Positions 27,001-36,000 of a stretch of 64,000 nucleotides of DNA are shown here, piece after piece; position 1 is the first letter of the stretch, and every line of letters begins with the position of its first letter. Source of the stretch: Rhodospirillales bacterium (GTDB lineage Bacteria; Pseudomonadota; Alphaproteobacteria; Rhodospirillales; SHVQ01); NCBI GenBank assembly GCA_009694195.1, contig SHVQ01000004.1:957-64956 (forward strand). Reading direction: 5' to 3'. Made by a program: the position numbers.

Positions 27001-30000
27001 CCGTTCGACGCCAGGGAGGCCATGCGCCGGCTGAAAGCCATGGGCATCGATACGCGGCCTTTCTTTTGGCCGATGCACGAACAGCCGGTGTTCCAGACGA
27101 TGGGGCTGTTCAAGGGCGAGCGCTATCCGGTTGTCGAGAGGCTCGCGCGGCGCGGATTCTACGTGCCGAGCGGGCTCGCGCTCACGGATGACCAGATGCA
27201 GCGGGTCGCCGACGGCGTGCGGCGGCTGATGTCTCGTTGAGGATTAGTCGCGTCGAAACCGCGTGGCCAGGATGCGGACGCAGTACTGGATGCCCAACCA
27301 GAGAAACGGCCCCAGGCTCGGAAACGACTTCGAGTTGCCTTCCTGCCGGTCGAGCAGCGTATACGGGACCTCGACGATCTTGAGTCCCTTCCGGCAGCAG
27401 CCGTAGACGAACTCGATGAAGAAGTCGCCGTACCCATAGGCGACGGGAAGCACGGAGTCGAACACGCTGCGCCGGACGGCGGCGACGCAGCTGTCGTAGT
27501 CCTTGATCTCGTATCCGAGAACCAGATTGGCGAAGCCGTTCACGAGCCGGCTGCACGCCACGCGAAAGGGGTGGCGCTCGTCCCCGCCGCCCGCGACGAA
27601 ACGGGATGCGATCGCGAGGTCGTGGGTATCCGTCGCGGCGATCAGCGGCTTGAGCAGGCGCGATTCGGCCGCCATGTCGGCGTCGATCCAGGCGACGATA
27701 TCGCCTTTGCTTTCTATGATTCCCCGCGTGATTGCGGACGCAAGGCCCTTCCCGCGCTCGCGGTGGACGAGCCGGACGCGGGGATCGTTGAGGCCTTCGA
27801 TGATGCCGCGCGTGCCGTCCTTGGAGTTATCGTCGACGACGATGATTTCGACCGGCGCCCGCACGTGCTCGAAGACCGCGCGGATCGTCGGCGCCACGCT
27901 CCCGCGCTCGTTCAGCGTGGCGATCACGACGGATACAAGAGGGACCGGCGATTGGCTGCCTTGCGTCGTCAAGCCAGGCATCTCCTGGGAGAGCGTTCAG
28001 CATTGTCGGGGCGCACCAAAAGCCATAGGATGCCCGCCGCTCGATGATTGAAATCCACCGCCCCATCCCCTCTAACGCCCCCCTTTCACAAGACGCGAGC
28101 GCTTGGCGCCGACGCCCATGAAAAAGGCCCTCATTCTCGGCGTGACCGGCCAGGACGGCAGCTATCTGGCCGAGGTCCTCCTCGACAAGGGTTATCTCGT
28201 ATACGGGATGGTTCGCCGGTCCGCAACCGGCAACACGCGGAATATTCAGCATCTCCTTGATGATCCGGGCATTTTGGGGAAGCGGCTCTTCGTCGTCAGG
28301 GGCGACCTCGCCGACCCCACGTCCCTCTACCGGATCATCGAGGACGTCCGGCCGGACGAGCTCTACAACGAGGCCGACCAGGACCACGTACGCTGGAGCT
28401 TTGACATGGTCGGATACTCCTCCGACATCACCGGCGCGGCCGTCGGCCGGCTGCTCGAAATCATCCGCCAAGTGAATCCGAAAATCCGTTTTTTCCAGCC
28501 CGTGTCGTCCAACATCTTCGGCCGCTGCACGGGTACCGTGCAGAACGAGAGCACGCCGTTCACGCCGCAGAGCGTCTACGCCGTCAGCAAGATCACGGCC
28601 TATTATTTCACGCGCTATTACCGCGAGGCGTTCGGGATGCACGCATCGACGGGGATCCTCTTCAACCACGAATCGCCCCGCCGCTCGATCGAGTACGTGA
28701 CGCGGAAGATCACCAACTCGGCGGCGCGCATCGCGCTCGGCAAGCAGAACACGCTCGTGCTCGGCGATATGAGCGCGCGGGTCGACTGGGGATACGCGCG
28801 CGAGTACATGGAGGCCGCCTGGTCCATGCTCCAGCAGGCCGAGCCCGACGACTACGTCATCGCCACCGGCGAGGCCCATTCGGTCCAGGACTTCGTCGCC
28901 GAGGCGTTCAAGGCGGTCAACTTGGACCCCGCCCGTCATGTTTCGACCTCGTCCGAATTTCTCCGCCCGACCAACACGAGCAATCTCATCGGCGACGCAA
29001 GCAAGGCGCGGGCGCGGTTCGGGTTCGCCCCCAAGGTCAAGTTCAAGGAGCTGGTGAAGCTCATGGTCGAGGCCGACCTCAACGCCGAGTCGGGAGCGGC
29101 TCGCTAGTGCCCGTTTCCCGCCCACGCCGATGAGGGGAGCTGCCGGATTCGTCGCGAACGGCTTCCGTTCGCTCCAGCAATACGGCCTCGGCCTGGCGGC
29201 CAAGGTTCTCCTGTTCGAAGTGGTTTACGAAACGCGGTTCCGCTCCGCCACGTCGCGTCTGGTCGCGGGCGACGACCTCGACATCGATGAGCCGCTGAAG
29301 CGGCACGGAAGCCCGTATCTTCCCTCGCCGTATTATTTCGCCCATCGCGCGTTCCGGGCTCTCGGCGGCGACGTTACGGGCCGCAGCCTTATCGATTTCG
29401 GCTGCGGTCTCGGCCGGGTCCTTCTCTTCGCCTCGCAGTTTCCGTTCCGCAAGATCATCGGCGTCGAGGCCTCGCCGACGCTCTCTGAGGGCGCCCGGGC
29501 GAATCTCCGGCGCTATTACGCGCGCGTTGGTAAAACGGCGCCCGGGTGGTCGATCGAATCGGGCGACGCCGCCAAATTTGCGATCCCCGACGATGCGGAC
29601 GTCTTTTATTTCGGCGACCCGTTCGGGCCGGCGGTGCTGGATCCCGTCGTCCGGAACATCGTCGCCTCGATCGAGCGCCGCCCCAGGCCCGCGACCGTTC
29701 TCTACGTGCATCCGGCCCACAGCGGCGTCTTCCAGAGCCATGGGTTTCGCGCGGTCGCCGCCGAGGTGAACCCGCAGGGGCGCGGCTTCATGGTTCTCAC
29801 GCGTTAGCGCCGGCGAGCCCGATGTCGAACGTCGACCTCATCACGTCTCCCGCGCTTGCCGCCCATGCCGAGCGCATCGTCGCCGCCATCCGCAATTTCG
29901 CCCCCGGCGCGGACGTCAACGTGCGGCTGGCGCGGCCGAACGGTGGGACGGGCGCGGGCGACGAAGCGGCTACCCAGGCCGCGTGGGAATCTTACTGGAG

Positions 30001-33000: not shown

Positions 33001-36000
33001 CCGCAGCTCCGGGCAGTACTGAGGAGCCGCATGCCCCGCGTCGCCGTCACCACGCGCTCGTTCTCGCGCCATCCCGCCCTGCGGGCGGAGCTTCTCAAGC
33101 GCTACCCCGAGGTCTCGTTCCACGAGGACGAGCGAAGGCTCGATGGCCGGGCGTTGATCGCATTCCTCAAGGGCCACGAGAAGGCGATCACCGGGCTCGA
33201 AAAACTGGACGACAGCCTATTCTCGGCCCTGCCGGAGCTCAGGACCGTTTCCAAGTACGGCGTCGGGATCGATATGATCGATCTCCCGGCAATGGGCCGC
33301 CACGGCGTTCGGCTGGGGTGGCAAGGGGGCGTCAACCGGCGGTCGGTCGCCGAGCTCACGATCTGCTTCATGATCGCGGCCTTGCGCCACGTGCCGTCCG
33401 ACAACCGCTCGGTCCGGGACGGCGGCTGGCAGCGGCCGGTCGGCCGGCTCCTCTCCACGCGCACGGTCGGCATCATCGGCTGCGGCTTCGTCGGCAAGGA
33501 CTTGGCGGTGCTCTTGCGTTCGTTCGGCTGCCGCGTTCTCGCCCACGATCTCCTGCCGTTCCCGGAGTTCTATGCCGCGCACGGCGTCAAGCCCGTCGGT
33601 CTCGATCAGCTTTTGCGCGATGCGGACATCGTGACGGTGCACGTGCCCCTCGACCGCACGACGCGCGGCCTCCTGACGGCCGAACGCCTCGCGCTGATGA
33701 ACCGGGGCGCCATCCTCGTCAACGCCGCGCGCGGCGGCATCATCGACGAATCAGCGCTGAAGGCGATGCTGAAGGACGGCCGCCTCGCGGCCGCCGCCTT
33801 CGATGTGTTCGCGAGCGAGCCGCCGACCGACACCGAGCTTCTGACGCTGCCCAATTTTCTCGCGACGTCGCATATCGGCGGAAATTCGGAAGAGACCGTG
33901 CTCGCGATGGGCATGGTCGCCATCGCCGGGCTCGACGAGAATCGCGTGCCCGGCAACGGCTGGCCGGAAGGCGCTGGCGTTTAGAATGGCTTCGTTGCGC
34001 TGATGAACCAGGCGAACCCGATCGAACGCCCGAGCCTGAGCTCGAGGGGCGACTGGATCGGCCACGGCTCGCCGTACGCCAGCAATCCGCCGGGATGAGT
34101 TCCGTAGCGGCGGATCTGATAGGCGCGGTAATACCCGCCGATCTTCGGAATGAGATAAAAGTAGAATTCGCCCTTCCGCATCGCGACGGAGCGAAACCGG
34201 CGGAAGAGCCGCTTGATGCCGCCGCGGCTGTAACAGCGGTGATCGGGTTCTCGACCGTCTGCGGCCGCTTGCCGCCCCACTCCGTCACGTTCCCGAGCCA
34301 ATTGGAATTTCCGAACAGCCGGCCGCGCAAGAGGCCCTCGCACAGGAGGAGGTTGAACCAGTAGTGCCAGGAGCTCTTGCAATACAGCATGATGACCGCC
34401 TTGCCGCCCGGCTTGAGCACCCGGTAGACCTCGGCCAGCGCGGCTTCCGTGTCGTTCGTGTGGTGAAGAACGCCGTTCGAATAGACGATGTCGAAGGCGT
34501 TGTCGCCGAACGGCAGGCCCTCGGCATCCCCTTGAACCGCGATGCAACCGTTCGCGGACGGCTGCAGCAGCGCAAACTTCACCGCCGTCGCGCGCACGCG
34601 GTCCAGCGTGAGATCGACGCTGGTCACGTGGGCGCCGTGGAGCGCAAACATCGCCGAATGGGAGCCGGCGCCCGACCCGACTTCCAGAACGGCCTTGCCG
34701 GAGAGCTGGGCAAGCGCCATCTCGACCACGGCCATGTGGCGGCGGTAACGGAACATGTCCTCCAAGGCTTCGAGACCTTGCCGCAGACCCTCGCGCGACG
34801 CGTTCGAGTCCTCGCCCCCATGGAGGGAATCGTAGAGCGACTTCCAGAACTGCTGAATGTCGTGCTTTGGGGTCGGCTGAGCCATGGGATGCGCGGCGTC
34901 CGGATGGGCGCGCAGTTTTGCTCAATCCGGCCTCCGGCGCAAACGCGGCGTGAGAGATTGCGGTAAACGGGCCGTGCTCGCCGGCGTTTCGCGAAAGCTG
35001 AACAACCTTCTGACCGACCCGACGCTCCGGCGCTGGACCGTTGCGCGCTGTCTCAGGCAGGTGCCGGGCGAGCCCAATTTCACGCCCCACCGGCCGCCGT
35101 ATCTCAAGGACCTACTGCCGCTCGGCCCGGAAACTCCGCGCCCGCCGTCGCCCTTCCGGGAGCTCGCGGCCGGGCGGCCGGCGACACCGATCGCGCTGCC
35201 GCTCCCCGGCCTGACGCTGAGGCTCGGCCCGGGCGACGAGCAGGACATTTTTCGGCGGCGCTTTGAGGATACGGAAACTCTCCTCGCGCTCCACCGGTTC
35301 GCCTGGGTCCCGCTGCTCGGCCCTGAGACGGACCCGGCATGGGTACAAAGCCTGTGGGAAGCATGGCGCGAACGCCACCGGTCGCCCGATGGCGGCTGGC
35401 CATGGCATCCCTATACGGCGGCCGAACGCGTCGCAAACCTGCTCGGCTTCGGGCGGCGCCAGGGCCTCCCCGCGCCCCTCGACGACACGCTCGATCTCCT
35501 CGCCGCGCACGGCCCGGCCATCGCCGGCCGGCTCGAGTACTTCGGCGACCACCACACCTCCAACCATCTCGCCAATAACGGCCGCGGGCTCTATCTGCTC
35601 GGCCTCTCGCTCGGTCTCGAGCGATGCGCCGCCCTCGGCGCCCGGGTCCTCGTCGAGGAAGCGGCGCGCATCTTTTTGTCTTCGGGAATCCTGCGCGAAG
35701 GATCGAGCCACTATCATCTCCTGCTCTTGCGAAATTATGCCGAGACGTGGCTCGCGGCGCGCGCCCACGCGCGGCCCGAAGCGCCCGTGCTGGAGGAAAT
35801 CGTCCGGCGCGCGCTCGGGGCCGTTCCGCCGCTCGTGCTCCCGGGGGGAATGCCGCTGATCGGCGATATCTCGCCCGATTGCCCGCCGGCGTTCCTCGCC
35901 GGCCTCATCGGAGGCGAGGGAGGCTGGACCGCCTCTCTCGACGACGACAGCCGCGAAAGCGTCCGGCGCATGCAGCAGGCCGCGGGAGCGCGCGCACCCA

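Follow-up and report, generated by a model that had tools for sequence, protein, structure and literature searches.

A conserved, probably GDP-based C-methyl sugar cassette in a surface-glycan island of a Rhodospirillales bacterium

To our knowledge, every sugar C-methyltransferase characterised so far acts on deoxythymidine diphosphate (dTDP) sugars in antibiotic pathways, and there is no proven biosynthesis for the C-methyl 6-deoxyhexoses of lipopolysaccharide (LPS), such as virenose, D-evalose and 3-C-methylmannose. Which nucleotide sugar, then, is methylated when a gene of this family lies beside the gene for a GDP-mannose 4,6-dehydratase (Gmd)? The question is raised by a 64,000-nucleotide stretch of contig SHVQ01000004.1 (positions 957 to 64,956) from the Rhodospirillales bacterium assembly GCA_009694195.1, hereafter the window. 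Between 28103 and 33984 it carries six genes, which the initial annotation read as a GDP-based C-methyl deoxysugar block: a Gmd-like paralogue (GmdL), two class I methyltransferases (MT225 and MT275), a C-methyltransferase of the TylCIII/MtmC/TcaB9 family (C-MT1), a canonical Gmd and a D-2-hydroxyacid dehydrogenase. The comparison described here makes it highly probable that these genes belong to a GDP-based C-methyl sugar pathway, and there is about an even chance that its steps run in the specific order Gmd, C-MT1, GmdL.

The window in its entirety forms a single large island of surface-glycan genes, with a guanine-plus-cytosine (GC) content of 62-70%. Its genes were called from the GC content of third codon positions and checked against independent gene calls on ENA/Logan contigs that carry a C-methyltransferase identical to the window's. 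All six genes named in the initial annotation were found to be present and intact, in agreement with the independent calls. They share one orientation, and because the gaps between them (22, 14, 69, 12 and 8 nt) span just 8-69 nt, they look like one operon. All gene-sized open reading frames (ORFs) of the 64 kb were scanned with Pfam and NCBIfam profiles. No NTP_transferase (RmlA or ManC) was found among them, and no short-chain dehydrogenase/reductase (SDR) of the window attained the RmlB equivalog cutoff, which bears out the earlier statement that RmlA and RmlB are missing from the window.

C-MT1 (deposited as MSO92271.1 from a Rhodospirillales metagenome-assembled genome, MAG) has an N-terminal zinc domain that matched PF08421 with 41.9 bits against a cutoff of 31.3, its four cysteines being C12, C15, C53 and C56. 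The class I S-adenosylmethionine (SAM) domain (PF13489) and the C-terminal domain (PF08484) were above cutoff both in C-MT1 and in the second C-methyltransferase of the window, C-MT2. Among PDB sequences, C-MT1 matched MtmC at 1.3e-45 (159 bits) and TcaB9 at about 1e-30. Its 'CHEHLEYY' segment aligns with the 'YHEHLSYI' of MtmC (HEH motif), with the catalytic Glu-His dyad kept, which in TcaB9 we take to be Glu224/His225. C-MT1 resembles TylCIII, MtmC, TcaB9 and KijD1, the dTDP-hexose C-3-methyltransferases of actinomycete antibiotics, in its Cys4 site, class I SAM domain, PF08484 domain and aligned HEH motif. It differs from them in its nucleotide, which is probably GDP, in a substrate that lacks 2-deoxygenation, and in that the product would go to a cell-surface glycan of uncultivated archaea and bacteria. 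Identities among its 120 best homologues, which are spread over many phyla, range from 67 to 79%, with Rhodospirillales, Vicinamibacterales, Aminicenantes, Omnitrophota, WOR-1 and Acidobacteria among the named sources, and in archaeal MAGs the identity is 55-70%. A plasmid search gave no orthologue of C-MT1 or C-MT2 above 40% identity in cultured hosts, and a literature search for a characterised GDP-sugar C-methyltransferase gave nothing beyond in-silico work on Coxiella. Judged by these comparisons, C-MT1 represents a divergent, separate and highly conserved subfamily of sugar C-methyltransferases; its gene context, described below, makes GDP-4-keto-6-deoxymannose the likely substrate.

The gene neighbourhood was compared across 12 loci of GTDB species genomes that encode a C-MT1 orthologue (two of which, L009 and L010, are near-identical), three long metagenome contigs and one locus with a fused gene (L026). 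The GTDB loci add Uhrbacteria, Parcubacteria and a Methanomicrobiales MAG to the carriers of C-MT1. GmdL co-occurs with C-MT1 in 14 of 15 loci, and the exception has just 0.8 kb of upstream flank. Orthologues of a DegT-family aminotransferase and of a 143-aa cupin (p143), both encoded upstream of the flagged block, were each found in 12 related loci, with a further, divergent copy of the aminotransferase in L026. A family 2 glycosyltransferase (GT2) gene next to the block has orthologues in nine related loci (51-66% identity), and the canonical Gmd likewise recurs in nine, L026 included (52-81% identity), mostly directly adjoining C-MT1. In the more closely related loci, a flippase-like protein, a B12-binding radical SAM enzyme and a membrane protein of 602 aa are found again. 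The order cupin-DegT-C-MT1-GmdL is contiguous in the minimal cassettes (L008-L010 and L016), and one locus (L018) is nearly syntenic with the window from a HAD hydrolase through an AsnB-like gene. Since the same neighbours recur at C-MT1 orthologues in 15 independent loci, the grouping is not due to chance; the cassette is read here as conserved and horizontally spread. On the evidence of these neighbourhoods, the flagged block, whose genes are real, is only the right half of the conserved cassette; the unit reaches upstream to about 20.9-24.7 kb and takes in the cupin, the aminotransferase, the GT2, the flippase-like protein, the B12 radical SAM enzyme and a GT-C-like protein.

The most informative partner of C-MT1 is GmdL. 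It is 45-48% identical to Gmds and has retained their Ser/Tyr/Lys residues together with the NADP 'RR' loop and the Rossmann motif. Its TIGR01472 score of 375 bits is under the cutoff of 415, and it reads VSSN where Gmd has STSE, so that E135 is replaced by N. All 14 GmdL orthologues have [ST]S[N/H] in place of the GMD signature [ST]SE, and eight more distant GmdL-type clusters have N, H, T or M at the position of the catalytic glutamate. This glutamate is the single additional acid/base residue that enables dehydration in GMDs (review PMC8987622). Other substitutions specific to the group (S90->D, A88->D, L86->E, N181->A/G/T and R225->I/V in E. coli numbering) indicate that the sugar pocket has been remodelled. 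As it falls below the TIGR01472 cutoff and has lost the glutamate, GmdL should not be filed as a Gmd. The possibility that it is simply another Gmd, or else an Rmd, was considered and rejected, for the glutamate is missing and the protein is far closer to Gmd than to other PDB entries. [quoted passage not shown] It is the only SDR consistently found in the cassette, and it looks like a recent derivative of Gmd.

A different reductase had been put forward in the initial annotation, namely the 2-hydroxyacid dehydrogenase at the end of the block. The gene shares the operon of Gmd, starting 8 nt downstream of it, and its product belongs to a family of NAD(P)-dependent ketone reductases. However, no tblastn match at E<=1e-5 was found in any related locus, not even in the nearly syntenic L018, which marks the gene as a lineage-specific accessory outside the conserved chemistry. 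The protein scored 211 bits with TIGR01327, under the cutoff of 454, and its nearest PDB entries are phosphoglycerate dehydrogenases at about 7e-46; these and the glyoxylate reductases that are also among its nearest relatives act on 2-oxo acids. It is thus extremely unlikely to be the pathway 4-ketoreductase. GmdL, which has lost the dehydratase glutamate and is universally present, is the better-placed and more probable candidate.

The association of C-MT1 with GmdL is reinforced by a protein found through an exhaustive phmmer search. P0380 (732 aa; accession HLD97897.1, from the MAG of a Candidatus Nanoarchaeia archaeon) is a natural C-MT1::GmdL fusion, whose residues 1-394 share 55% identity with C-MT1 and whose residues 408-717 share 58% with GmdL. 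The fusion is present on 13 contigs of Nanoarchaeia MAGs, and its existence suggests that the two proteins catalyse adjacent steps. Its locus (L026) also encodes a genuine Gmd with a score of 530 bits, a NUDIX protein, a DegT protein, a GT2 and a PMT_2 protein, and no cupin was found there. The small NUDIX gene directly follows the fusion in L026 (12205-12663) and directly follows C-MT1 in the WOR-1 locus L016 (11206-11637). The best NCBIfam match of its product is GDP-mannose mannosyl hydrolase, at 51-58 bits and under the cutoff of 146. The window has no NUDIX gene of this type.

These companions bear on the possibility that the C-methyltransferases use dTDP-, CDP- or UDP-4-keto sugars from genes elsewhere, the adjacent Gmd being coincidental. 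All characterised members of the family with PDB matches use dTDP sugars, and the scan for RmlA and RmlB covered the 64 kb of the window. For C-MT1, however, adjacency to Gmd or GmdL recurs in every locus across phyla and domains, the enzyme occurs fused to a Gmd-derived domain, its companions are of GDP type (the perosamine-synthase-like aminotransferase and the NUDIX protein resembling GDP-mannose hydrolase), and neither RmlA nor RmlB was found in the window or among those related loci that are annotated. The dTDP explanation is therefore very unlikely. A GDP route, with GDP-4-keto-6-deoxymannose as the likely substrate, had been proposed in the initial annotation. It is supported by the comparison through the Gmd genes of nine loci, the adjacency and fusion of GmdL and the perosamine-synthase-like aminotransferase, and the GDP-mannose-mannosyl-hydrolase-like NUDIX proteins of two loci point in the same direction.

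The steps proposed here were all inferred from homology and gene association. Gmd would convert GDP-mannose to GDP-4-keto-6-deoxymannose. C-MT1 would then use SAM to methylate a carbon beside the 4-keto group, most likely C3 by analogy with TylCIII and MtmC, with C5 as the other possibility. GmdL would reduce the 4-keto group to give a GDP-6-deoxy-3-C-methylhexose of the evalose or virenose type, and the two small methyltransferases, perhaps together with the B12 radical SAM enzyme, would introduce additional methyl groups. A parallel branch, made up of the cupin and the perosamine-synthase-like aminotransferase, would start from the same 4-keto intermediate and yield a GDP-amino-dideoxyhexose. 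The ArnC-like GT2, the flippase-like protein and the GT-C-like membrane proteins probably attach one of the sugars to a surface polysaccharide via a polyprenyl-phosphate carrier.

The closest parallel is the route to virenose (6-deoxy-3-C-methylgulose) in Coxiella burnetii, which was proposed in silico only and comprises the Gmd CBU_0689, the C-methyltransferase CBU_0691 and an Fcl-type reductase (PMC3539893). Both schemes run from Gmd through C-methylation by a TylCIII-family enzyme to 4-ketoreduction on GDP, both belong to an LPS or polysaccharide setting, and both are proposed routes. In the window, this virenose-type gene set (Gmd, C-MT1 and, as the presumed reductase, GmdL) lies within 5 kb. 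The two differ in that the reductase here would be a glutamate-less Gmd paralogue and not Fcl/GMER, and in that the cassette adds the cupin, the aminotransferase and the lipid-carrier components. CBU_0691 shares 42-44% identity with TylCIII, EryBIII and AviG1 (PMC3539893), whereas C-MT1 is much more distant from the characterised enzymes; judged indirectly from these values, C-MT1 is probably no orthologue of CBU_0691. Virenose, the one precedent named in the initial annotation, is not the only one: 3-C-methyl-D-rhamnose occurs in the O-polysaccharide of the alphaproteobacterium Azorhizobium caulinodans, and Burkholderia andropogonis has Rha3CMe (PMC7203242).

Two other systems show how the reduction may be achieved. 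Some bifunctional GMDs that also reduce GDP-4-keto-6-deoxymannose at C4 are cited in PMC3539893, as is MtmC as a bifunctional C-methyltransferase and 4-ketoreductase. MtmC couples methylation and 4-ketoreduction in one enzyme, whereas here the two activities would be split between C-MT1 and GmdL, or fused as in P0380. The GMD/RMD pathway to GDP-D-rhamnose in Pseudomonas aeruginosa and Aneurinibacillus thermoaerophilus likewise begins with Gmd, after which an SDR carries out the C4 reduction of GDP-4-keto-6-deoxymannose; GmdL, for its part, looks like an offshoot of Gmd that lacks the dehydratase glutamate, has a remodelled pocket and is always tied to a C-methyltransferase.

The amino-sugar branch was assigned from the cupin and the aminotransferase, whose genes are adjacent or overlapping. 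In the cupin, H51, H53, E65 and H104 are invariant. Its AlphaFold2 model (pLDDT 92) gave the ketoisomerases FdtD, FdtA and WlaRB as top Foldseek matches, although weakly (E 5e-3, TM 0.42). The FdtA Pfam family (PF05523) was not matched even at E<=1, no PDB sequence match was found, and when PDB sequences were searched with a cupin profile, nothing but spurious ABC-transporter matches came up. In the literature, WbuC is an annotation label with no assigned function. A small cupin gene paired with one for a DegT protein recalls the ketoisomerase/3-aminotransferase pairs FdtA/FdtB and Tyl1a/TylB, but the cassette cupin is WbuC-like and of the metal type, with no detectable sequence similarity to FdtA. 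On the basis of the model, it is a candidate GDP-sugar 3,4-ketoisomerase or epimerase. The aminotransferase, as in the GDP-perosamine pathway (Gmd and Per), is far nearer to perosamine synthase than to any dTDP or UDP enzyme: in the PDB it matched the perosamine synthetases 3bn1 and 3dr4 at 1.7e-85 and the next family at 4e-63. A role as a 3-dehydratase of the ColD/E1 type was rejected, since the catalytic lysine is present. GDP-perosamine and GDP-mycosamine synthases are 69-73% identical and have no diagnostic motif, and no GDP-4-keto-6-deoxymannose 3,4-ketoisomerase is known (PMC8944477).

An overlapping cupin/aminotransferase pair followed by a 255-257-aa class I methyltransferase gene was also observed in Insolitispirillum peregrinum (L019, GCA_900156605.1) and Sphaerospermopsis kisseleviana (L020, GCA_028329225.1), both of which are cultivable. 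The layout resembles the trios of ketoisomerase, aminotransferase and N-methyltransferase. The cupin is 59% and the aminotransferase 62-63% identical to the window's, and neither a C-methyltransferase nor GmdL was found at the trio. The C-MT1 loci that have no cupin (L013 and L026) have the most divergent DegT proteins (39-41% identity). It follows from the trios and the divergent DegT proteins that the amino-sugar part behaves as a separable, exchangeable module.

Several observations weigh against a C-methyl sugar pathway with a separate amino-sugar branch. The aminotransferase stands beside C-MT1 and GmdL in 13 of the 14 loci with usable flank, so that there could be a single amino-sugar pathway in place of two branches. 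ManC is not in the window. In seven loci (L008-L010, L013, L014, L016 and L017), GmdL occurs with no canonical Gmd within 10 kb, and Gmd would therefore need to be encoded elsewhere. Three new acidic residues are invariant in GmdL (NEADQDHV for NLAAQSHV) and are not explained by a neutral substrate. C-MT1 is only distantly related to the characterised C-methyltransferases (159 bits to MtmC), so that its nucleotide, regiochemistry (C3 or C5) and stereochemistry are predictions. Delivery by a lipid carrier, finally, would follow from similarity at the level of protein families.

One way to accommodate the first of these points is a single pathway to a 3-amino-3-C-methyl sugar by oxidation, methylation and reduction. 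Here Gmd would be followed by the cupin as a GDP-sugar 3,4-ketoisomerase, and the aminotransferase would aminate C3 to give a mycosamine-like sugar. GmdL would then re-oxidise C4 of this already 6-deoxy substrate, for which it would need no dehydration residue, C-MT1 would methylate C3, and GmdL would return the hydride. Such a scheme gives every conserved protein a role, and TcaB9 and EvaC are precedents for methylation at C3 of 3-amino-4-keto sugars. The cupin/aminotransferase pairing, the ketoisomerases as nearest folds of the cupin model, the lack of a sequence distinction between perosamine and mycosamine synthases and the still missing GDP-sugar ketoisomerase (PMC8944477) would all fit, and the new acidic residues of the GmdL pocket could bind the amine. 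The C-MT1::GmdL fusion would also suit a tightly coupled redox and methylation pair. However, L013 and L026 have C-MT1 and GmdL with no cupin, the Foldseek matches are weak and have no counterpart at the sequence level in the profile search, and C-MT1 is nearer to MtmC, whose substrate is 3-hydroxylated, than to the 3-amino-specific TcaB9 and KijD1. Moreover, we know of no precedent for the re-oxidation of a finished GDP-amino sugar. The single pathway is thus rather unlikely. In its most explicit form, C-MT1 and GmdL would act as a 'borrowed hydride' pair on a GDP-3-amino-3,6-dideoxyhexose, with the cupin as the missing isomerase of the mycosamine route and GDP-3-amino-3-C-methyl-3,6-dideoxyhexose as the product, which we regard as improbable.

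Alternatively, a single pathway might lead to 3-C-methyl-perosamine, with Gmd, methylation at C3 by C-MT1 and amination at C4, the cupin being an epimerase and GmdL redundant or regulatory. Kansosamine-type 4-amino-3-C-methyl sugars occur in nature. The resemblance of the aminotransferase to GDP-perosamine synthase, its almost constant place beside C-MT1 and the contiguous cupin-DegT-C-MT1-GmdL order of the minimal cassettes are in keeping with this. On the other hand, the scheme leaves no reaction for GmdL, which is universally conserved and occurs fused to C-MT1. The DegT proteins from loci with no C-MT1 (62-63% identity) are also as close to the window's as those of the cassettes, which argues against an aminotransferase substrate that is already methylated. 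This route is therefore unlikely as well, and a C-methyl sugar pathway through Gmd, C-MT1 and GmdL, with the amino-sugar genes as a parallel branch, is the reading followed here. The coordinates of the genes concerned are given in Table 1.

Table 1. Features of the cassette and of the C-MT2 module, in window coordinates.
Feature	Position	Strand	Supporting matches and remarks
602-aa polytopic membrane protein, DUF2079-like	20948..22756	+	weak PF09852; nine hydrophobic segments
B12-binding radical SAM, class B methylase-like	22983..24671	+	PF02310 + PF04055
LPG_synthase_TM/flippase-like membrane protein	24706..25674	+	PF03706 1.3e-32; TIGR00374 sub-threshold
p143, WbuC-like metal-type cupin	25691..26122	+	TIGR04366 8.5e-10, sub-threshold
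DegT-family aminotransferase, GDP-perosamine-synthase-like	26122..27240	+	PF01041 3e-112; catalytic Lys in SFYANK
GT2, polyprenyl-phosphate sugar synthase-like (ArnC/AglJ type)	27244..27981	-	PF00535 4e-30; weak NCBIfam ArnC, AglJ
GmdL, Gmd-derived SDR	28118..29107	+	PF16363 7e-104; ORF opens at TTG 28103
MT225, 225-aa class I methyltransferase-like	29130..29807	+	PF13489 7e-5, below threshold
MT275, 275-aa class I SAM methyltransferase	29822..30649	+	PF08241 1e-16
C-MT1, TylCIII/MtmC/TcaB9-family sugar C-methyltransferase	30719..31936	+	PF08421 + PF13489 + PF08484
Canonical GDP-mannose 4,6-dehydratase, Gmd	31949..33022	+	TIGR01472 586 bits (cutoff 415); STSE...YAAAK
D-2-hydroxyacid dehydrogenase, phosphoglycerate-dehydrogenase-like	33031..33984	+	PF02826 2.5e-52
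UXS/ArnA-like SDR, SSSEVY	42222-43214		nearest solved relatives of known function are UDP-glucuronate decarboxylases
Class I methyltransferase of the C-MT2 module	43211-44086		
GT-C-like membrane protein, nine segments	44083-45636		
C-MT2, TylCIII-family C-methyltransferase	45633..46889	+	PF08421 75 bits, CxxC...CxxC; 'YHEHLSYL'
GT2, polyprenyl-phosphate-sugar-synthase-like	46895-47683		
Nucleotide-sugar dehydrogenase	47693-48940	-	

The remaining genes of the cassette would serve tailoring and delivery. MT225 is likely an O- or N-methyltransferase acting on a sugar; its orthologues (41-52% identity) adjoin GmdL or C-MT1 in eight loci, and those of MT275 (48-53% identity) were found in four cassette loci. 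The B12 radical SAM enzyme has a 71%-identical orthologue at the same position in L018, and genes of this kind also occur in L016 (five of them) and L017; such enzymes could methylate unactivated sugar carbons. The flippase-like protein, with orthologues in L014, L017 and L018, is by its family a candidate flippase for a lipid-linked sugar. The 602-aa protein is a candidate GT-C transferase; L007, L012 and L018 have orthologues of it (39-50% identity) next to their cassettes. An ArnC/AglJ-like GT2, a flippase-like protein and a protein of the PMT_2/DUF2079 type beside sugar-nucleotide genes recall the three-component Arn (L-Ara4N) and Gtr systems for periplasmic modification of glycans. The likeness is at the family level, however, with the specific NCBIfam matches far below their cutoffs, and the donor would be a GDP-sugar.

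Among the Gmd homologues collected, eleven of 660-760 aa (P0391, P0400, P0405-P0407, P0420, P0428, P0469, P0470, P0478 and P0519) have large insertions inside conserved motifs, and these insertions look like inteins. Two others, P0419 and P0421, are Gmd::DegT fusions and single-chain candidates for the synthesis of GDP-perosamine or a colitose-type sugar.

The second C-methyltransferase noted in the initial annotation, C-MT2, does start at ATG 45633, where it overlaps the stop codon of the upstream gene. C-MT2 is about 29% identical to C-MT1 and matches MtmC at 2e-81 and TcaB9 at 7e-70. Its neighbours are conserved in L021 and L023-L025, the last of which is the cultured Magnetospirillum moscoviense, and a metagenome scan with C-MT2 gave four loci, mostly short. 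Proteins in which a C-methyltransferase is fused to a GT2 (P0288 and P0300, 684 aa) were also found. The conserved partner of C-MT2 is the UXS/ArnA-like SDR and not Gmd, so that a nucleotide other than GDP is more plausible for this enzyme than for C-MT1. The C-MT2 module is separate from the C-MT1 cassette and probably not GDP-based; together with the adjoining nucleotide-sugar dehydrogenase, it raises the possibility of a C-methylated UDP-4-keto-pentose or C-methyl-branched pentose.

Elsewhere in the window, the upstream part holds nonulosonic-acid genes at 285-3162 (NeuA-like cytidylyltransferase, NeuB and NeuC-type 2-epimerase), a second cytidylyltransferase (CTP_transf_3) at 16193-16960, a fused ABC exporter (4220-6073), two GFO/IDH/MocA oxidoreductases (9527-11682), a carbamoyltransferase (12277-14070) and GDSL-type proteins. 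The glycan encoded here is a very elaborate one. At 33981-34885 on the minus strand, a class I methyltransferase gene convergent with the flagged block is frameshifted near 34240: one frame encodes the first 215 residues of its product and another the C-terminal tail. A related ENA contig has an intact 301-aa version, and the window copy is either a pseudogene or an assembly error. It is followed by a trio encoding a Hepar_II_III_C protein, an AsnB-like amidotransferase and a GT2 (34884-39610), with 48-65% identity in L018 and in M. moscoviense; the trio appears to be another transferable unit of such glycan islands. Further downstream are WbpL/WecA-like and WbpM-like genes and then purH. A GC content of 66% and a 1614-aa ORF that at first looked like a polyketide synthase had raised the possibility of a mycobacterial LOS or other actinomycete locus; this was rejected, since the ORF is an NAD-glutamate dehydrogenase and the proteins are deposited under a Rhodospirillales MAG.

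Gmd, C-MT1 and GmdL thus provide a defined set of three enzymes for a candidate GDP route to methyl-branched sugars. GmdL would be a clear example of a dehydratase paralogue re-purposed through the loss of one catalytic residue, and the cupin is a candidate for the missing GDP-sugar 3,4-ketoisomerase. If a 3-amino-3-C-methyl sugar were the true product, it would belong to a class so far known only from the dTDP pathways of actinomycete antibiotics. The identity of about 70% that C-MT1 maintains across Rhodospirillales, Omnitrophota and candidate-phyla-radiation bacteria points to a common, unrecognised methyl-branched surface sugar in many uncultivated microbes. The cassette would then represent a widely shared and unstudied variant of nucleotide-sugar tailoring, which most likely converts GDP-mannose into a methyl-branched 6-deoxy sugar of the cell surface.

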